Program-made: the position numbers and the translations under genes
IMG/VR virus record: IMGVR_UViG_2595698357_000001
Coordinates: 1 to 64,000 of that record
Length of the DNA stretch: 64,000 bases
Reading direction: 5' to 3' (one strand)
Source of the DNA: a virus
Taxonomy: Duplodnaviria > Caudoviricetes
Shown here: one piece after another, positions 17,549-35,121 of the stretch
How the letters are laid out: each line of letters begins with the position of its first letter
Position numbering within the stretch: position 1 is the stretch's first letter
The notes under the pieces: generated by a model
Told to the model about the DNA's origin: nothing
What the model saw: only the letters and a program-made list of their open reading frames with translations
Database searches by the model: none

Positions 17549-18859
17549 TCACTTCCCGCGTTTGGCCGCAGGGATAAAATCGTTGACTTCGATGTTATCT
17601 GGAATCGACAGTTCAGGACAGTTGGCGCGCATCGGGTCGATGTACGGCTTGCTGCCCACAATCCAGAACAGAGAATTCTCATTCAGGAGCTCTGGCTTGT
17701 TCTGTTGAACCCAGGTCATCACCTTCCCTTCATAGCGAGGGTGCAGTTCAATTTCCCCCCACTGGTAATCCATCAGGTCATTGTACCGCACCCAGTTGGT
17801 GGTGTGCAGGTCAACATGGTGAACCGTGAAGCGGGGTTGTCCCTTGTCTTCTTTGTTCTCGGACTCAACCCGCAAGGTTTTGTCGCTGAACAGGAGATGC
17901 ATCACGTTGGTGTTCTTGGACTTGGTCTTTCCACCTTCACCGAACCCAGGGTTGTCACGATAATCACGAATCCAGTTGCGGATGTGCGGTAGCCCCAGCT
18001 CACGCCCGATGATATCCAGACGGTCTTCAATGAACTTCAGGCGGTTTGGGCCAATCCCGATGAGCCAGACGTTCTTCAGGTTTGGTTTAGGGAACATCGC
18101 CAGGCCAGTCATGATGCTGCAGGTGCTGTTACAGCTACCGGCCGGGATGATCAGGTCAGTGATATGGTCAGGGATGTTCTGTACCTGATGACCACCCAGC
18201 GCATGGAAGTCCGCTAAGCGACGAGCGGAGTGCTTTTCATGATCCAGGGTAATACCATACTCCAGATAGTATGCATCCGGCTTCGTCTCACTGAGGAGCG
18301 ATAAACAGCGGGGCTGGATGACGGTGTTGTAACCTGAGCCGACGAAGTTGAACTCACTACCGAACCAGGCGCTCATCTCAACCATCTCCGCTTTCATGCA
18401 GGTGGTTGGCTTCGTTGCCCCCAGTACCGTAGTGGTCTTGCCGCCGAAGTGACGAGAAACAGCTGTTGCCATCGGGGATTGAGGTGAACCCATGACCGTA
18501 CCGTGAACGATATCAGGACTGCCGCCCGCCAGGATGTGCTGTTGCATCAGCCAGATTGCCTGACGCAGTTTGGAGCCGTTGATGCCCTGCTTGCCGTCCG
18601 GATAATCAGACAGAGGGGCGAAGTAGTCTTCACGCTTGAACCACACACGTTGCCCCGTCGCTGGGTTCGTGTGCAATTCGTTGGGGGTGAGGGCGAACAG
18701 GTAATCGTCCCACTTGATCTTGGTGCGGTCAAGGCTAAGTACAGGGAAGATGGTCTTTCGGTTCTCCCGCTTGGCGTTCGCCTCAGCCAAAATCTCTGGA
18801 TCGATACCTGCCAAGGCTTCATCGATTTTAGAATCTAAGGCTTTTTCAAATTCGTTCAT
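17549..18859 (-). CDS. PLP-dependent (fold type II) enzyme, putative decarboxylase of thymidine hypermodification (ViI gp226-like)
   Basis: WFKREDY...GINGSKLRQ (PLP lysine), SPQ, IPAGSCNS, LHPRYEGK, LFWIVG. Confidence 0.8.
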   Translation of the reverse strand: MNEFEKALDSKIDEALAGIDPEILAEANAKRENRKTIFPVLSLDRTKIKWDDYLFALTPNELHTNPATGQRVWFKREDYFAPLSDYPDGKQGINGSKLRQAIWLMQQHILAGGSPDIVHGTVMGSPQSPMATAVSRHFGGKTTTVLGATKPTTCMKAEMVEMSAWFGSEFNFVGSGYNTVIQPRCLSLLSETKPDAYYLEYGITLDHEKHSARRLADFHALGGHQVQNIPDHITDLIIPAGSCNSTCSIMTGLAMFPKPNLKNVWLIGIGPNRLKFIEDRLDIIGRELGLPHIRNWIRDYRDNPGFGEGGKTKSKNTNVMHLLFSDKTLRVESENKEDKGQPRFTVHHVDLHTTNWVRYNDLMDYQWGEIELHPRYEGKVMTWVQQNKPELLNENSLFWIVGSKPYIDPMRANCPELSIPDNIEVNDFIPAAKRGK

Positions 18860-18923
18860 TGCAGTCTCCTTGAGTGATTGAGGTCATTGTATACTTACAG
18901 GACTCAATACCCAAGGAGAATTC

Positions 18924-19091
18924 TCAATCTTTGTGCTTGCTGATCTCGATAGCCTGGAGCTGGGCTTCGGCATCTTTCTCAGTGTCGTGTGTACCCAACA
19001 CCTTGGTGCCTGATTTGTTGGTGACTTCCCATTTGTCACCCACCTTGCGGATATGCTCACGGATGTTGAGGTAGTTCTGGAATGTGTTCAT
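18924..19091 (-). CDS. Small late protein with capsid-targeting-like N-terminus
   Basis: MNTFQNYLNIRE...; RBS GGAGG; CTAAATA at 19112-19118. Confidence 0.75.
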   Translation of the reverse strand: MNTFQNYLNIREHIRKVGDKWEVTNKSGTKVLGTHDTEKDAEAQLQAIEISKHKD

Positions 19092-19130
19092 GATAGCCTC
19101 CGGTTTCAACATATTTAGCCGAATCCAGGA

Positions 19131-19165
19131 TAAAAAGAAGCCCAGGTCAATCCCTACCTGGGCTG
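19131..19165 (-). terminator. Terminator closing the RNA cassette
   Basis: AGCCCAGGT-AGGGATTG-ACCTGGGCT followed by TCTTTTT on the minus strand. Confidence 0.8.
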
Positions 19166-19173
19166 TTGAAATT

Positions 19174-19250
19174 TGGCACCCCCGAAGGGGTGGGCTTCCG
19201 TCAATTTACTGTTAGACAAGCCACTGCCCGCAGACCAGCTGGCGACCGGT
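19174..19250 (-). ncRNA. Small CCA-ended structured RNA (putative)
   Basis: Ends CACCCC-TTCG-GGGGTG-CCA; 5' boundary uncertain. Confidence 0.35.
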
Positions 19251-19251
19251 T

Positions 19252-19325
19252 TGGCCGGGAGTCTAGGATTCGAACCTAGGACTCAAGCACCCTGTGCTTG
19301 CGTTTTACCGCTAAACTACTTCCCG
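19252..19325 (-). ncRNA. tRNA-Pro-like RNA with closed anticodon loop
   Basis: D arm GTTT/AAAC, T arm CTAGG-TTCGAAT-CCTAG, CCA end. Anticodon arm CAAGCAC-AGG-GTGCTTG lacks U33. Two acceptor mismatches. Confidence 0.7.
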
Positions 19326-19328
19326 ATT

Positions 19329-19404
19329 TGGTAGTCCCTGTTGGCTTTGAACCAACGACCAAGCGATTATGAGTCGCATGCTCTAACCACTGAGCTAAGG
19401 GACT
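19329..19404 (-). tRNA. tRNA with CAU anticodon, Ile2 (lysidine) type
   Basis: 76 nt canonical cloverleaf AGTCCCTTAGCTCAGTGGTTAGAGCATGCGACTCATAATCGCTTGGTCG...ACCA, very close to E. coli ileX as recalled. Confidence 0.92.
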
Positions 19405-19407
19405 GAA

Positions 19408-19612
19408 TGGTGTACTCAACCAAGGGATGCTAGACCTTATTTCCCGTTTGCGCATGATCAGTTCATGCGAGCCTCTTGAGCACCTTGCGGCAACTCTTCT
19501 GAAGGTCATCGGCCTGCTCTGGCCTCACTCCAGGAGTTTATTTTTCCAGGGCTTTCCATTCACATGTCTTAACCAGACCGGGATTCGGGCATGTGAAATT
19601 GGGTTGAGTACA
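19408..19612 (-). ncRNA. 205-nt CCA-ended structured RNA
   Basis: Perfect 11-bp terminal stem TGTACTCAACC/GGTTGAGTACA plus CCA; internal stems TTCACATG/CATGTGAA and CGCATGA/TCATGCG; GCAA tetraloop. Confidence 0.7.
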
Positions 19613-19616
19613 TTTT

Positions 19617-19784
19617 TGGCACCCGAGTGAGGATTCGAACCTCCTTATCCTTCTATCGTCTGGTCATACTCGCCCCGATTATCCTAGGTTCATCGGTTGC
19701 TTTCATCCCATATTGTCGTCGGACTACCCCGTTCCTCCTATCCCCGTCATTGGTGGCCTACCTCAGGGGGTGGGTAACTCGGAT
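19617..19784 (-). ncRNA. 168-nt RNA with tRNA-like acceptor and T arm, GGA-rich body
   Basis: ATCCGAGT/ACTCGGGT-G-CCA; T arm GAGG-TTCGAAT-CCTC. Confidence 0.7.
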
Positions 19785-19883
19785 TCAATTCTTGCTGGCT
19801 TACCATGCCAGCCGGGTCGCGATTTCAAAGTGTCCAACCACAGGATACTCAGAAGGTTTATCACAACGGTGAGGACACTGTTT

Positions 19884-19919
19884 CCAACGTTCTCAATGTT
19901 CTCAACGTTCTCAACGTTG
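19884..19919. repeat. Four 9-nt tandem repeats (TCAACGTTC)
   Basis: CCAACGTTC TCAATGTTC TCAACGTTC TCAACGTTG. Confidence 0.85.
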
Positions 19920-19924
19920 TGGTT

Positions 19925-19985
19925 TGGTGCACACAAGCAGGAGTCTAACCTGAAGTCCCTGCACTATGCCGGGCGTCTTGCATGC
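19925..19985 (-). ncRNA. D-armless tRNA-like mini RNA (about 61 nt)
   Basis: GCATGCAAG/CTTGTGTGC-A-CCA; T arm CAGG-TTAGACT-CCTG; one central hairpin. Confidence 0.6.
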
Positions 19986-19993
19986 ACCAAATT

Positions 19994-20167
19994 TGGCGCC
20001 ATGTCCTGGGGACGATCCAGGTGGGCTACCAGCTTTCAATCAAGGTCTCAGGTCCACGCAGTCCCGTCAACAACGATTTAGTTACTGGGTAGTCCTATGC
20101 CCAACCTCACCACTCATTTTAACGTTTCGCCTCCCTCTGCGTGGAGGAGGGAGCTAGAGCGTATGGC
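19994..20167 (-). ncRNA. About 174-nt CCA-ended RNA with T-like arm and probable pseudoknot
   Basis: GCCAT/ATGGC-G-CCA; CCTGG-ATCGTCC-CCAGG; loop of hairpin CTCCCTC/GAGGGAG is complementary to downstream CTGCGTGGA. Confidence 0.55.
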
Positions 20168-20191
20168 CGCAAACAAGGCAGTAATCTTTAT

Positions 20192-20265
20192 TGGTGTTGA
20201 GCACGGGTTTCAGTTATCCACAACTTCGACGCGCTCCCCATTGCTGGGAATATTATGTGCTCAAC
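20192..20265 (-). ncRNA. 74-nt CCA-ended RNA
   Basis: 9-bp stem GTTGAGCAC/GTGCTCAAC-A-CCA; internal TTCCCA-GCAA-TGGGGA. Confidence 0.6.
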
Positions 20266-20278
20266 CCAATAAAGACTT

Positions 20279-20785
20279 TGGAATCGCCCAGAGCAAGACT
20301 TCAGGCGGGCAGCGAGATCATCAGCAGGTTAGATGAGTGTCTCACTCCGGGCTATCCAAGGCCGGCCGATGGATTTCACAACCACTCATAAGAGCCTGAG
20401 CTGGCGCGGGTTGATAGCCCGGTTATGAAGCATCGAGTGATGCAAGTTACCTCACATCTCAGAGTTCGGTCAGTGGCTGCTTTGTCCTGGCTTCCGCCGT
20501 CGTACAACCGAACTCTGAGATGTGCGCCCCGAAGGGCGCCACGACCATTCTTTAACAGAGATGCCGAGTCTCTGGGCTTCTACCTTTTAGAGCTTCAGCC
20601 GTTTACAGGCACTGCCTGTGTTGGTATACAGCGAAAGCAACAGCGTAACAACACGTCATGCGGTGGCATAACTGAGAAGATTATCACCACGCCTGGTTAA
20701 CTGTGAATCCAGCGCCCCTGACAATAACCCTCTCAGTTATGTTCCCCCGTTTCTAATACACGGACGGGGGCACTCCATGGTCGTT
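20279..20785 (-). ncRNA. Large multi-helix structured RNA region (about 500 nt)
   Basis: 18-bp inverted repeat 20453-20470/20507-20524, 11-bp 20667-20677/20731-20741, CCGGGCTATC/GATAGCCCGG, UUCG hairpin, ends in CCA; no credible ORF. Confidence 0.55.
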
Positions 20786-20998
20786 TGGTAACGAGGGCGA
20801 CTCACCCCTCGCTGTGGGTTCGCGGTTAAGCGACCATCAGATACGCGTTATCGTTTGCATTTGATTTATGTGGTCAGTTTTCAAAAAGCCCGCATAATCG
20901 CTACGACGAGAACGAAAACCTGTTTGGGGTTAAGGGGGCGTTTCCGTGTGACTCGACCTCGACCCAGTCACCACTTAACCCCAAACAGCTTACCGCTC
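20786..20998 (-). ncRNA. Structured RNA containing a tmRNA-like tag frame
   Basis: 15-bp stem 20920-20934/20974-20988, then AAATCAAAT|GCA AAC GAT AAC GCG TAT CTG ATG GTC GCT TAA; 3' hairpin followed by TTACCA. Confidence 0.55.
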
Positions 20999-21008
20999 TA
21001 TGAATCTA

Positions 21009-21034
21009 ACTATACTCACCAACTTGTTATTGAC
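21009..21034 (-). promoter_or_regulatory. Promoter for the RNA cassette
   Basis: GTCAAT-N14-TATAGT; shares a 19-nt block with the promoter at 21599-21622. Confidence 0.7.
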
Positions 21035-21049
21035 AAAAACTTTATTTTA

Positions 21050-21140
21050 GGGTGGCCGGGGTGGTTCTCGAAGCCACAACATCGCGCTAATGTCGCCTCA
21101 GGCTGTACGCGCGCCACTCTACCAATTGAGCTACCCGGCC
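21050..21140 (-). ncRNA. tRNA-like RNA with expanded anticodon domain
   Basis: Acceptor GGCCGGG/CCCGGCC, D arm GCTC-AATTGGTA-GAGT, T loop TTCGAGA. Anticodon stem CGCGC/GCGCG encloses 21 nt with GCC-TGA-GGC. Ends ACCC. Confidence 0.7.
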
Positions 21141-21155
21141 AAAGTATGACATTCA

Positions 21156-21245
21156 ACATGGTTGGGAGATTAGCAGCCTCCGACCTCCCCTTACCGGGTC
21201 ATGACTCCGGCGGGGCGCTCTCGTTTTTCTGAGCTACAACCATGT
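21156..21245 (-). ncRNA. tRNA-like RNA with extended anticodon arm, no encoded CCA
   Basis: ACATGGTTG/CAACCATGT, D arm GCTC/GAGC, CCCC-G-CCGG-AGTCATGAC-CCGG-TAA-GGGG, degenerate T arm GGAG/CTCC. Confidence 0.6.
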
Positions 21246-21397
21246 CAAATGAAAGGATGTTTCGTATTCCTTACGGCTCCAGGCGTCCCCGGTGCGGCTG
21301 TTGGTGATTATTCTGCCTATTTACCTGCGCCCCTGGCTTTGGGATTACCACACTTGGATTCAGGTCCGCCGTGTGCAGGCTATTTCCCTCAATTTGT

Positions 21398-21574
21398 TTA
21401 CTTAGCCCCGGTCTCGTCTCTACACGACCCGAAGTCGTGTGTCCCGTGGGGGATCCCACAAAACTCAGAGAATTTGGCAACCCCACCATGTGTCGGATCA
21501 CCTTGTATAGTCGGCATCACCAGGGCAAGTAATGTTCCGACCGCGAGAAGTAACACCAGAAGAATCAGTTCCAT
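21398..21574 (-). CDS. Small membrane or secreted peptide (58 aa, absent from ORF track)
   Basis: RBS GAGGAGG; MELILLVLLLAVGTLLALVMPTIQGDPTHGGVAKFSEFCGIPHGTHDFGSCRDETGAK. Confidence 0.65.
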   Translation of the reverse strand: MELILLVLLLAVGTLLALVMPTIQGDPTHGGVAKFSEFCGIPHGTHDFGSCRDETGAK

Positions 21575-21598
21575 TTGTCCCTCCTCGCTATGAATCTA

Positions 21599-21622
21599 AC
21601 TATACTGCAACTCTTTATTGAT
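21599..21622 (-). promoter_or_regulatory. Promoter, paralog of 21009-21034
   Basis: ATCAAT-N12-TATAGT followed by TAGATTCATAG. Confidence 0.55.
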
Positions 21623-21633
21623 AAAAGCGCTTT

Positions 21634-22221
21634 TTACAAAAATTTATTCGCTACGTTGTTGAAAATAAACACATAATCAGAAGCACGCTCGGACGACATA
21701 TAATGAGTGCTTGGCTTGCTGTGCGGGTTCAGGGTTTGCTGCAGGCCGACACGCTCTGCCCAGCCATTGATGTTGGAACCGTAAAAGCCGATCACGCCGA
21801 CAGGCCAGATGCGACCACTGTCGCTGCGGATGTACTGAACTTCGAATTGCTTGTCACCACGGATCTCTACCAGGTGAATACGGAAGCGGGATTGTCTCCC
21901 TTCCGGCGTGGTCATGTGTGGCATCGGGTTGTAGATGTTGCCGAAGCGTTTACGGCGCGCCTGTGAGGATTGTTCCAATTCGGACTTCAGCATCTCACTA
22001 CACATGATGTTGATAGACATGGTCTTGCCAGTAGTCAACTCATATTGTGCCAGGCGCAGGGCTGTGACGGATATCTCACTGAACCCAACACCCTTGCCAG
22101 TACGTTCTTTCACATAGCCTGAGATGCGGTTCATGATTTCCATGTTGTTACTGCCTGCCCAGTTGTCGCACACAGGCTGGATATACTTCTGTACCACTGT
22201 TTTGATCTGCATGTTCTTCAT
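21634..22221 (-). CDS. Hypothetical protein
   Basis: 195 aa, RBS GAGGA, promoter ATCAAT-N14-TATTAT at 22257-22282. Confidence 0.8.
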   Translation of the reverse strand: MKNMQIKTVVQKYIQPVCDNWAGSNNMEIMNRISGYVKERTGKGVGFSEISVTALRLAQYELTTGKTMSINIMCSEMLKSELEQSSQARRKRFGNIYNPMPHMTTPEGRQSRFRIHLVEIRGDKQFEVQYIRSDSGRIWPVGVIGFYGSNINGWAERVGLQQTLNPHSKPSTHYMSSERASDYVFIFNNVANKFL

Positions 22222-32721: not shown

Positions 32722-35121
32722 ATGGTCACCAAAAATACTTCGTACCACCCGCTCATGGGTGACGTCGAACCAGCTACATACTACCGCCGGGGTTCGTTCC
32801 AGGATGGTGGTTTTGTTCAAATCCCAGATGACATAATCAAACACTCTGACGGAAACTGGTATCGCTACAAGAATGCTATCCCAGCTGGCGGTGTTCCGGT
32901 GCTTCCAGGGACTTCTCCGGACTCTAATTGGGAGTTGGTAGGGTTACGTGGGGATGTGGTAGATCGCCTCGGTACGACCAGCGGGTTCCGTTTTGTTGGA
33001 CAAGCTGCCAGTATCGCTGAAGTCCGTGCCATTGAGCCAACCAAACCCAACGAACGGATACTGATGAAGCAGTATGGTCCGATCAAAGGTGTGGGTGGTG
33101 GTGAATTCTGGTATGACGAACTGGATACCACCACTGCAGACAATGGTGGTACTATCCTCGTGACTGCTGGAGGCAAACGCTGGAAGAAGATCATGAAGGA
33201 TACCGGGTACTCGGCTGAAGACTTCGGAGCTGACCCAAATGGGGTGGCCGACTCCCGTGCTGCTATCCAAGCCGCAATTGACTTCGTCGGCACTCTGAAG
33301 AATAAGATCCTGTATCTGACTGGCACTTACCGGATTGAAGGCGACACGACCATCACCTTGGCCAATGGCGTACAATTGCTGGGTACTCGTCGTGGTATGA
33401 CCCAGGGACCACAGACTATTCTCGGTGATACGATGAAGGTGGTCAATGACACGACCTTCCATGTTGCCATGACTCCAGGCAAAACCACACCGCTATTCAC
33501 CGCCGGGCGTGATGCTGTGTTCTCTGGGTTTTCCGTCGTGTATATCAACCAGCCGAAAGAAGCCGCGACCATCAACGATATCTTGACTTATGGTCCGACG
33601 ATTTGGGCAAGTCACTCTTGCTCGGTTGTGAATGTTCGCTATGTCGCTGCCTGGGACTTCTTCAACGGTCGGGGTGAAGCACATTTCCTCAGTGATATCT
33701 ACGGCTACGCCTTCAACGTTGACTTCCATATTGAAATGTGTGCTGACGTCACGCGCCTGAAGAACATCCACATCAACTCAAACGTTTACCGTCCTGGCTG
33801 GTCTATCTTGGATGTGGCTGCACCGCGCGTTACCAGCCGAGCATTCGAAATGGTACAACATGACGGCATCATGTTCGAAGGGATTCACGTGTTCGCCAAG
33901 GGTACAGTCTGGCACAACCGCCAAAACAGCACTGCGCGTCTCTGTTCCCTGAACGGTACGGACTTCTTGTTTGATAAATGCGGTACAATGCTGGACTCTG
34001 ATGTCAACGGCGGCGTCTGCTGCTCCCTGTCCAACGGGGTGTTTATCCATGACTACCACACCAACGAAGGAGCTGCACTGAACCTGACCAACCCGGTAGG
34101 CACTCAGGTAACTTCTTACTATCTGACGGATTGGAAATGGCAGCTGGGTTCGGCTGGTACGTCCCCAGGACAAGGCTCTTGGGCGGCAAACTGGATGAAC
34201 TTCAACAGCGCAGCAGGTACTCGTGTGTGGCTGGATAATATCAACATCCTGGCCATGGGGACTCTTGCCCTTAACAACAATGCCCAATTCAACCGGGTCG
34301 AGGGTAGTGTCACCATCGGCACACGCAAAATTAATTTCAGACCTCAGAACGCCAACCTGGTAGAGAACCATCGACTGGTGTCCATAGATCCGTTCACCAA
34401 TATCCCATATGGCTTCACCAAACTGGGTACTGCTGTGACCGTGTCAGGGCGTAACGTGACCAGCACTGCCGCAACTTCACCAACTGGACTGGGAATCAGC
34501 ACTCGCGTTGCTCAGACTTTCCCTTCGTCTTGTGCAGTTTGGGTATACGCCAGCCAGAAAGGTGATAGCTCTGGTATTCTGGTGACAGCTTATCTTGCCG
34601 GGTTTACCAACCCGATAACGTTCTCAGCGCAATGGGAAGCCATGGGCAACTCATGGTTGGCGCGCCTGGAGGTTCCGAGTAGTGCCGGGCGTACTCATTG
34701 GGATATCACAGCAAACGCCCCTTCAGCCACTGGTGGTACGCTGACAATCCAAAGCGTCCATATGATCGCAGGCACGACTCTGGAATTCTCACCAGAATCC
34801 GATTCGGTGGCGATCCATACGAACCAAGTGGGCGCAATGCGTGGTAAAATGACCTTGGTGGCCAACGTTCCTCAGGAGCTACCATCGGCTCACTTCGGGG
34901 GTGATCGTGGAGTGATATCCCTTTATGTGAAGTCTGCAACCGTCGTTGGCTATTGGGTGTTGAACAAGCGACTGATCGGTGACACGGGTACAGTGACACA
35001 GATAGCCTATGCGGCAGGGGCTGAGACAATTACTGTGGATTGGCCTGCAGGTAGCGGGGCGAAGCCAAGGGTGATGTCTACTGCTGGCGGTGACGTGGAT
35101 GTCACGATAACCGGTGTCTGA
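32722..35121 (+). CDS. Tailspike (beta-helix depolymerase)
   Basis: GGGEFWYD...DNGGTILVTAGGKRWK head; SAEDFGADPNGVADSRAAIQAAID. Confidence 0.9.
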   Translation: MVTKNTSYHPLMGDVEPATYYRRGSFQDGGFVQIPDDIIKHSDGNWYRYKNAIPAGGVPVLPGTSPDSNWELVGLRGDVVDRLGTTSGFRFVGQAASIAEVRAIEPTKPNERILMKQYGPIKGVGGGEFWYDELDTTTADNGGTILVTAGGKRWKKIMKDTGYSAEDFGADPNGVADSRAAIQAAIDFVGTLKNKILYLTGTYRIEGDTTITLANGVQLLGTRRGMTQGPQTILGDTMKVVNDTTFHVAMTPGKTTPLFTAGRDAVFSGFSVVYINQPKEAATINDILTYGPTIWASHSCSVVNVRYVAAWDFFNGRGEAHFLSDIYGYAFNVDFHIEMCADVTRLKNIHINSNVYRPGWSILDVAAPRVTSRAFEMVQHDGIMFEGIHVFAKGTVWHNRQNSTARLCSLNGTDFLFDKCGTMLDSDVNGGVCCSLSNGVFIHDYHTNEGAALNLTNPVGTQVTSYYLTDWKWQLGSAGTSPGQGSWAANWMNFNSAAGTRVWLDNINILAMGTLALNNNAQFNRVEGSVTIGTRKINFRPQNANLVENHRLVSIDPFTNIPYGFTKLGTAVTVSGRNVTSTAATSPTGLGISTRVAQTFPSSCAVWVYASQKGDSSGILVTAYLAGFTNPITFSAQWEAMGNSWLARLEVPSSAGRTHWDITANAPSATGGTLTIQSVHMIAGTTLEFSPESDSVAIHTNQVGAMRGKMTLVANVPQELPSAHFGGDRGVISLYVKSATVVGYWVLNKRLIGDTGTVTQIAYAAGAETITVDWPAGSGAKPRVMSTAGGDVDVTITGV

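Follow-up and report, generated by a model that had tools for sequence, protein, structure and literature searches.

Region 19131-21250 of the viral DNA analyzed here (positions 1 to 64,000 of IMG/VR record IMGVR_UViG_2595698357_000001; this whole 64,000-nucleotide stretch is called the window) is, on its minus strand, a non-coding RNA locus that runs from promoter-like sites to a predicted terminator. The window belongs to a Serratia phage of the Ackermannviridae, genus Miltonvirus, whose own genome is 157,834 bp long and 99% complete. The most informative part of the locus is the unit ending at 20786, a tag-coding RNA derived from transfer-messenger RNA (tmRNA); a preliminary description of this DNA had missed the identity of this unit. 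This tmRNA-like RNA is probably undescribed. On balance, we consider it probable that the locus as a whole is a non-coding RNA operon heading the tRNA region of the phage, with a headless tmRNA-like RNA and tRNA-like punctuation among its parts. Coordinates are those of the window, and the features described below lie on its minus strand unless stated otherwise.

The tmRNA-like core and its tag frame

The core (20731-20922) consists of a PK1-like GUUUUCG hairpin, a tag reading frame, a hairpin after the stop codon that corresponds to helix 5, and an H-type pseudoknot (PK2) with an A-rich loop. It resembles tmRNA (SsrA; RF00023 for the standard form, RF04321 and RF01850 for the permuted forms) in these last two elements, in the resume motif that stands before a GCA codon, in its ssrA-type tag of 10 codons, and in adjoining tRNA genes. 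It differs from tmRNA in lacking an acceptor stem, a G3:U70 pair, a T arm, and an ACCA end, in having one conserved pseudoknot after the tag, and in that the core RNA appears to start at the PK1-like hairpin in some phages; its scores, moreover, are 19-30 bits compared with a gathering score of 47. Over 20779-21019, the Rfam models RF04321 (tmRNA_permuted) and RF01850 (beta_tmRNA) gave 19.3 and 13.8 bits, the best relative reached 29.5 bits, and the gathering cut-offs of 47 and 84 were not reached. The weak permuted-tmRNA matches were driven by the unpaired stretch that holds the tag-like frame.

The tag frame (20826-20858) starts at the GCA at 20858 and encodes ANDNAYLMVA in 10 codons followed by TAA. 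Together with the tmRNA resume motif, this frame is conserved across phage families, with the tag reading ANDNAFLMAA in Kevin and 3M, ANDNTFLAVA in Det7, May, and FEC14, ANDNAYLAVA in SKML-39, ANEEAYLMVA in phi G17, ANEEMYLAVA in HK633 and swi2, ANDNAFRVAA in SE131, and ANDDVVLMAA, among others, in IMG/VR contigs. The E. coli K-12 tag, as read from the fetched gene, is ANDENYALAA and likewise has 10 codons. As a positive control, a scan of viral contigs for the resume motif returned 83 candidates with a frame ending in alanine, among them 31 ARAGORN tmRNAs of the standard and permuted forms, and the tag begins at the same GCA of the motif in the canonical ARAGORN tmRNAs that were checked. Canonical tmRNA genes were also seen in the IMG/VR contigs L095 and L051, where the standard form carries the tag ANDNAYAMAA and stands beside four tRNA-Thr genes, and the permuted form carries the tag ANDNVYMVRAAA; full tmRNAs with similar tags thus circulate in viral contigs too.

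Judged from 19 distinct sequences, the tag frame is under coding-type conservation or selection. All 19 of these 33-nt tags, which come from related and horizontally spread elements, are open for exactly 10 codons, compared with 1/19 and 6/19 in the other two frames, and they end in TAA (17), TAG (1), or TGA (1). The variable sites number 4, 5, and 9 at the first, second, and third codon positions, respectively. Synonymous codon differences account for 260 of 907 in the tag frame, the two remaining frames having 10 of 976 and 165 of 933, and ANDDVVLMAA by itself has several synonymous spellings. Conventional translation of the tag was considered and rejected because there is no in-frame start codon between the upstream in-frame stop and the GCA. 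An overlapping ATG was also rejected as the start of the tag, since it is out of frame with the tag, does not occur in Kevin or 3M, and would give peptides of varying length.

The structure of the core was tested on an alignment of 20 diverse sequences, which are again related and horizontally spread. Helix 5 (20813-20790) has 6 pairs, is 96.7% paired, and has 3 pairs that changed on both sides; counted by cells, 17 were changed on both sides versus 5.6 ± 2.0 in shuffles. Slid controls were 45-57% paired versus 98% for the structure overall. PK2 (20779-20744), which lies downstream of the tag, occurs in two sequence types. With its stems fitted by script, so that the pairing counts lean towards the model, both stems were fully paired in 18/20 sequences and stem A was 5/5 paired in 19/20. 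In type I, stem A was 5/5 paired in 12/13 sequences, one of these 12 being without stem B, and occurred as CGCAC/GTGTG, CGCAT/ATGTG, CGCAG/CTGTG, and CACAC/GTGTG, with five versions of stem B. All seven type II sequences, which include the window, were fully paired, with CATGG/CCGTG, CGTGG/CCGTG, CGTGG/CCATG, and CGGAG/CTCTG as their versions. The loop of the PK1-like hairpin can also be paired with upstream bases (CTTT/AAAG or TTAT/ATAA), a pairing that was read by eye and whose register shifts between groups.

By blastn, the core is present in 406/50,697 phage records, which include lambdoid, T1-like, N4-like, and Vi1-like phages. Its carriers comprise Schitoviridae (phi G17, PhAPEC5, and KP8), SE131, an Aeromonas phage, swi2 and other siphophages of ~47 kb, and lambdoid HK633, in which the core lies between PR' and the holin gene. 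It is also found in 411/5426 complete E. coli genomes, at 215 chromosomal and 208 plasmid places, for example between prophage antiterminator and holin genes or ahead of a tRNA cluster on a 113-kb plasmid. The features under the matches in phage records are "none" or hypothetical proteins, and the GenBank/RefSeq records and E. coli places looked at carry no RNA annotation for the core, nor does ARAGORN or the Rfam gathering score supply one there. The frequency of the core and the lack of RNA annotation in the records seen make a simple genetic test in E. coli possible. A loose-pattern scan of a genome collection yielded 96 stretches, those inspected being mostly from unrelated bacteria or ordinary tmRNA genes, and was discarded as unusable for estimating distribution; the Enterobacterales in it were few (Pseudocitrobacter, Rouxiella, Erwinia, and Escherichia). 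The unrelated phages swi2 and phi G17 share a motif, ATGTAGGGGTATGTA (L021:1880-1905 and L019:1805-1830), situated ~60-70 nt upstream of the tRNA that comes after the element.

No description of the core came up in our literature searches, and six tag peptides that were looked for were absent from every searchable paper. PMC4131195 names mycobacteriophages and Bacillus phage G as the only phages with ssrA. PMC11915505 counts 79 bacteriophage tmRNA sequences in a supplement, and these may include some of the elements described here. The only mention of "tmRNA" in PMC6950046 is a reference for ARAGORN.

Absence of a tRNA-like domain and possible uses of the core

No tRNA-like domain (TLD) was found for the core. 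ARAGORN made no tmRNA call in the window, and its single call among 46 phage-type candidates, in swi2, rests on a frame other than the conserved one and borrows the tRNA-Met downstream. A search of all 157,834 bp of the phage's genome with RF00023 at E<=10 returned 0 matches. By this model, a TLD was likewise missing from nine of ten further carrier genomes, the matches being to the message part, to isolated T-loop fragments, and in one case to 8 nt at 1.5 bits. The exception is Salmonella phage SE131, which has a separate TLD-only gene of 59 nt (L141:1501-1559; record positions 33196-33254) located 24 kb from its headless core. This unannotated gene combines a T arm and an ACCA end with a G3:U70 acceptor stem (25.9 bits with RF00023, E 4.7e-10), and it is restricted to SE131-like phages (3 phage records). 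Pairing between the connector of the SE131 TLD and the SE131 core was no better than in shuffles.

The core could belong to a complete tmRNA, standard or two-piece, with a TLD too derived or distant for ARAGORN and Rfam, for which U1 (21148-21246), U2 (21050-21141), or block C (19408-19611), all described below, would be the candidates. Many acceptor-like stems with NCCA and T arms do lie nearby. U2 is placed just upstream of the core, where permuted genes have their acceptor piece, and Kuttervirus and Agtrevirus have at that place a shorter replacement element without an anticodon arm; block C, in Miltonvirus, ends in a stem plus ACCA. However, G3:U70 is present in none of the three, U2 is absent from 3M and May, and records of the Ackermannviridae type are the only ones in which block C and U1 were found, whereas the core occurs in many phage families. 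No T-loop-like motif was found within -700 to +1200 in 13/45 carrier loci. In T1-like phages and an SSU5-like phage-plasmid, where the tRNAs come after the element, GTTTTCG is immediately preceded by a promoter-like site, and the RNA therefore appears to start at the PK1-like hairpin in these carriers. We regard a hidden TLD as decidedly unlikely.

Direct searches for an acceptor partner point the same way. Pairing of the bases before GTTTTCG with a downstream 7-mer plus NCCA left the 5' end of the core with no partner in carrier loci and gave isolated matches in 5/96 loci only, the 96 being mostly unrelated genome-scan matches. Scanning 42 carrier loci for a T arm, a 7-bp stem, and NCCA, with or without G3:U70, recovered true tRNAs, self-contained tRNA-like modules, and chance partners only. 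An acceptor stem between the 5' end GCTGTTT, which is invariant in Ackermannviridae, and downstream AAACGGC-T-CCA modules was also rejected: such 7-mers, with G-U pairing allowed, number 10 in the window versus 7.7 ± 2.8 in shuffles, the AAACGGC-T-CCA module has a better partner of its own nearby, and L014 and L017 keep only its 3' scar.

Generally, tmRNA is defined by a tRNA-like head joined to a message. A headless RNA with a selected tag frame would represent either a new use or subversion of ribosome rescue or a new class of partial-tmRNA inhibitor. Tentatively, we propose that the core is a self-contained headless tmRNA of enterobacterial phages, prophages, and phage-plasmids that would be loaded on rescue ribosomes without a TLD of its own, with the phage rather than the host setting the C-terminal tag of stalled proteins; as a complete account we still think this unlikely. 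Because the tag frame shows coding-type selection, the RNA may be read by ribosomes under rescue and might supply them with a phage-specified ssrA-like tag, although our confidence in this step is low. Entry onto the ribosome could, with similarly low confidence, proceed via host Ala-tmRNA/SmpB or via an acceptor piece not yet recognised; alternatively, the GCA codon might be placed directly in an empty A site. Serving as a tag template for rescue ribosomes would be the use most consistent with the coding signature, but it is mechanistically unprecedented without a TLD and is put forward with little confidence. If true, trans-translation would here receive its template in trans, by a mechanism that, to our knowledge, is not known for any tmRNA.

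An untranslated tmRNA-like RNA might instead act as a decoy, binding and titrating a factor by which the pseudoknots and message part of host tmRNA are recognised, for example ribosomal protein S1, RNase R, or the ribosome, and thereby damping or redirecting host trans-translation in the course of infection. This would agree with the lack of a TLD in our searches and with SE131, which has its TLD-only gene and its headless core as separate genes. There is precedent for the opposite half in the near TLD-only tmRNA of mycobacteriophage DS6A, and a similar molecule is stated to inhibit tmRNA strongly (PMC4131195, PMC11915505). The DS6A mini-tmRNA is like the core in being a phage-borne partial tmRNA, and the 59-nt gene of SE131 is comparable to it, but DS6A keeps the TLD and has no tag, whereas the core keeps the tag and has no TLD. 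The decoy, which we consider unlikely, leaves unexplained the constant length of 10 codons, the kept stop (TAA/TAG/TGA), and the excess of third-position and synonymous changes.

Structured RNAs and tRNA-like units of the locus

As an operon, the locus would probably be transcribed from one promoter-like site (TTGTCA-16-TATAGT, 21036-21009 in block 20998-21036), the presumed start of the main RNA operon, to one predicted terminator, an intrinsic-terminator-like hairpin with a T run (19164-19139). These predicted sigma-70-like and intrinsic-terminator-like sites bear out the promoters and terminator that the preliminary description had given as bounds. The promoter block is conserved in 7/7 aligned Ackermannviridae. 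The window has exactly two copies of an 18-mer that spans the -10 element (20998-21015 and 21588-21605) versus 0.01 expected, and the upstream copy precedes a 58-aa open reading frame (ORF) and then U1 and U2. The order encoded would be a hairpin, the headless tmRNA-derived RNA, long-stem and tRNA-like modules, a 204-nt RNA, tRNA-Ile2, and a degenerate tRNA-like element, with U1 and U2 upstream behind the other, identical 18-mer. Modules of the tRNA, tRNA-like, and long-hairpin kinds probably act as punctuation for processing, which host RNase P, 3' trimming enzymes, and RNase III would cut to release the structured RNAs.

The 204-nt RNA, block C (19408-19611), has a closing stem of 11 bp and, in Miltonvirus only, an ACCA end (at 19408), other genera having ACAA or AACT. 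Among 13 sequences, 15 of its 54 predicted pairs show compensatory change, and its conservation follows pairing rather than reading frames. Of the 268 phage records in which it was found, nearly all bear the names of enterobacterial hosts; the records listed measure 118-162 kb, and 14/14 copies read are from Ackermannviridae. The features under these matches are "none" or hypothetical proteins, and block C has no Rfam match.

Long hairpins flank the core. The 5' hairpin before it (20920-20993) has a 15-bp stem and a minimum free energy (MFE) of -32.7 kcal/mol (z -4.0; 0/200 shuffles as stable), and, as read from the alignment, its stem sequence differs between genera while pairing is kept. Directly after PK2, a long-stem module (20664-20741) is closed by CATAACTGAGAG/CTTCTCAGTTATG into a near-continuous helix of ~23 pairs that is followed by CCACC. 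The fold at 20655-20741 has an MFE of -33.6 kcal/mol (z -4.5), and the module is a candidate processing hairpin or tRNA-like handle.

The preliminary description had counted only one real tRNA, which is roughly right: the unit at 19329-19404 alone is fully canonical, but a flawed one at 19252-19325 also passes the Rfam threshold. The canonical tRNA (ARAGORN; Rfam 65.8 bits) has the anticodon CAT and is assigned to the tRNA-Ile2 (lysidine) type on the basis of 95.9% identity to E. coli genes with a tRNA-Ile annotation. The flawed "Pro(AGG)" unit (ARAGORN; Rfam 44.8 bits) has 2 unpaired acceptor positions and a C at position 33, and it is absent from Kevin, 3M, and 2050H1. At the gathering threshold, Rfam found these 2 tRNAs and no other family in the whole window. 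An E-value scan of 18800-21700 added a third tRNA-like match, the weak tmRNA matches, and a reverse-strand artefact over the tRNA.

The two further tRNA-shaped elements claimed upstream are present in the sequence. U2 (21050-21141) is called "Cys ACA" by ARAGORN and matches the Rfam tRNA model at 43.9 bits in E-value mode only; its anticodon loop is enlarged by ~22 bases, it ends past the discriminator in CCC instead of CCA, and it folds with z -1.2. U1 (21148-21246) is a tRNA-derived cloverleaf closed by a long stem (MFE -37.3 kcal/mol, z -3.0) that neither ARAGORN nor Rfam calls. In it, TAGCTCAG...GAGC resembles a D arm, the anticodon-like arm is extended and carries a palindromic loop, the loop of the T-like arm measures 9 nt, and there is no free CCA. 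U1 is conserved in 7 distinct Ackermannviridae sequences, with the closing stem and the CCCC/GGGG stem changing on both sides between genera. The loop of the long arm (21195-21210) is palindromic in both groups, as GTCATGAC in Miltonvirus and as GTCGAC in other genera (L004:1252-1359 and L005:1487-1595), which suggests a possible kissing-loop dimer or protein-binding site. Pairing of the U1 or U2 loop with the core or block C was no better than in shuffles.

The remaining modules lie between the core and the terminator. Two hairpins make up 20454-20539, one of them GC-rich with UUCG as its loop and the other a perfect stem of 18 bp, and their fold at 20445-20555 has an MFE of -48.6 kcal/mol (z -4.9; 0/200 shuffles as stable). 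The tRNA-sized unit at 20190-20268 is closed over 74 nt by GTTGAGC/GCTCAAC followed by A and CCA (z -3.0); it has no T loop, and its helix can extend into the CCA. A mini tRNA-like unit at 19920-19994 (z -3.75) has a 15-bp closing stem, a small hairpin, a T-arm-like CAGG TTAGACT CCTG, and a CCA inside the stem. Between two modules, 19880-19919 holds ~3.5 tandem copies of a GTTGAGAAC-like unit of 9-10 nt, as seen by eye. A 168-nt unit (19617-19784) has an acceptor-like 7-bp stem ATCCGAG/CTCGGGT, discriminator G, and CCA around ~125 nt of other sequence, together with a near-canonical T arm, GGAGG TTCGAAT CCTCA, and the unit is conserved in Kevin, 3M, and 2050H1. The last unit (19139-19251) consists of a GC hairpin with a TTCG loop, a CCA, and then the terminator-like hairpin, and with z +0.2 its fold is not special.

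Comparison with relatives suggests a modular arrangement, as indels between close relatives fall at module borders. In Kevin and 3M, a real class II tRNA (Ser or Tyr) and ~330 nt are inserted at window position 19995, the upstream border of the 19920-19994 unit. Modules with an acceptor stem, a T arm, and NCCA stand directly after PK2 in several Ackermannviridae and SE131. In L014 and L017, the last 11 bases (AAACGGCTCCA) of such a tRNA-like module are left after PK2, ~256 nt after AAGCTGTTTG, as a deletion scar at a module border. In their predicted folds, the border modules fit tRNA-like punctuation with putative cleavage.

All ten of the CCAs to which the preliminary description had drawn attention are present in the sequence, but their recurrence is not enriched, and periodicity of CCA was rejected as a signal since its counts do not depart from chance. 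Of the 10 sites in our own count, 5 are strictly closed by a stem of 7 bp, a discriminator, and CCA, versus 2.45 ± 1.55 in shuffles. The CCA at 19925 lies inside a 15-bp helix, that at 21159 inside the long closing helix of U1, and that at 20192 is partly paired. The CCA at 20786, after helix 5 of the core, is not conserved, SKML-39 having CGA there. The earlier view that these CCAs mostly close an acceptor-like stem around cargo was not supported, as most of the supposed cargo units have no conserved closure by an acceptor stem and CCA. Its broader proposal of a polycistronic non-coding RNA with tRNA-like handles survives in part: the locus is a non-coding and apparently polycistronic mix of tRNA, tRNA-shaped, and non-tRNA RNAs, several of them covarying and with modules at their borders, but the recurrence of CCA drops out of the case. 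The release of many different effector RNAs found no support.

Two small RNA-seq runs from two studies yielded contigs covering 20697-20966 and 20765-20974 with no mismatch and a one-base gap. A contig from a run only guessed to be RNA covers 19424-19597 in block C, and one metatranscriptome holds three read-sized pieces of the locus. These RNA-library contigs give a weak hint of expression; no conclusion rests on the stretches that they leave uncovered. All shares of the sequencing runs were small, and the habitats and organisms of the runs were left out of account. Several observations weigh against an operon with a headless tmRNA-like RNA, beginning with the contigs themselves, which show no RNA ends and prove no transcription and whose breaks may reflect inverted repeats. 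The count of CCA followed by an A/T-rich hexamer is 10 versus 12.3 ± 3.0 in 200 dinucleotide-like shuffles, and 20556-20654, 19995-20189, 19700-19789 (z +1.4), and 19172-19251 fold no better than shuffles. With no TLD found, the known route of tmRNA tag translation is missing. The 19 tags, given their relatedness, do not form a large independent sample, and the PK1-like GUUUUCG hairpin has 4/7 pairs invariant and none changed on both sides, so that covariation neither supports nor rejects it. Pairing of the core with E. coli tmRNA was rejected, as the duplex energies of -79 to -104 kcal/mol are inside the shuffle range.

Some of these observations would also suit a graveyard of decaying tRNA and tmRNA genes that, save for one good tRNA, have no present function. 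Close relatives differ in the modules that they carry, no more than an 11-nt scar of the tRNA-like module is left in L014 and L017, the CCA motif is at chance, and some stretches are unstructured. Decay does not, however, account for the coding signature of the tag or for a core kept in 406 phage records of unrelated families and in 411/5426 E. coli genomes. The preliminary description had looked to covariation across related phages, and compensatory changes were indeed found in block C, helix 5, PK2, and U1, which also argues against decay. We consider this explanation very improbable.

The operon as proposed has partial counterparts in other systems. In the T4 tRNA cluster, the stable non-tRNA RNAs called species 1 and 2 are co-transcribed with tRNAs and released by tRNA-processing enzymes; the locus described here is larger, has one unit of recognisable tmRNA origin, and is likened to the T4 cluster by description. 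GOLLD and ROOL are large structured phage RNAs of unknown function beside tRNA genes, but the E-value scan gave no Rfam match to these families, and the locus looks modular rather than like a single fold. Punctuation by tRNAs and tRNA-like 3'-end handles is known from mitochondrial transcripts and RNAs of the mascRNA type. Similarly, the tRNA-shaped border elements are predicted to be open to cutting by RNase P and RNase Z, which could free their neighbours; unlike those systems, several handles here have no free CCA or T loop. The locus adds a 204-nt structured RNA specific to Ackermannviridae and a concrete candidate case of tRNA-like punctuation in a phage non-coding RNA operon. For annotation, it accounts for an "empty" gap of 1.5-2.5 kb in hundreds of therapeutic-candidate phage genomes.

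Position of the locus and its open reading frames

Over the 2.2-kb stretch, the window is most similar to other Miltonvirus phages, namely Serratia phage KNP4 (98.4% identity), 2050H1 (98.2%), 3M (92%), and Kevin (88%). Three blocks are conserved against four other genera: 21236-21165 (U1), the promoter with 20926-20822, and 19606-19411 with the tRNA after it. The locus keeps the same position, between the baseplate wedge gene and the tRNA cluster, in all Ackermannviridae genomes fetched: the wedge gene comes first, then the gene of a 190-aa protein (phrog_3788 here) whose function is unknown and a small ORF, then the locus, and then tRNA genes. The records of relatives leave 1.4-2.5 kb at this position unannotated or filled with short hypothetical proteins.

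The annotation of short hypothetical proteins over the locus in some records could mean that small protein genes were missed here, and one ORF of 77 aa (19276-19509), the sole minus-strand PHROG match, does match phrog_23857 (E 1.6e-9). That ORF runs through both block C and the tRNA-Ile2 gene, and by its position it looks like a translated RNA gene; translated RNA genes may also underlie the phrog_23857 family itself. No PHROGs match was found for any of the 5 largest ORFs on the plus strand of the stretch, and conservation in block C tracks base pairing, not frames. Missed protein genes are thus scarcely credible as an explanation, and the earlier claim of ~2.1 kb without credible ORFs was borne out, no ORF having family support.

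Kevin has an extra ~300 nt between U1 and U2 with an annotated 87-aa coding sequence (L001:1549-1812), which the window is without. The 58-aa ORF behind the upstream 18-mer (21398-21574) has no Pfam or PHROG match, and relatives have short ORFs annotated at the same place. It has a strong Shine-Dalgarno-like GAGGAGG before its ATG and a hydrophobic N terminus.

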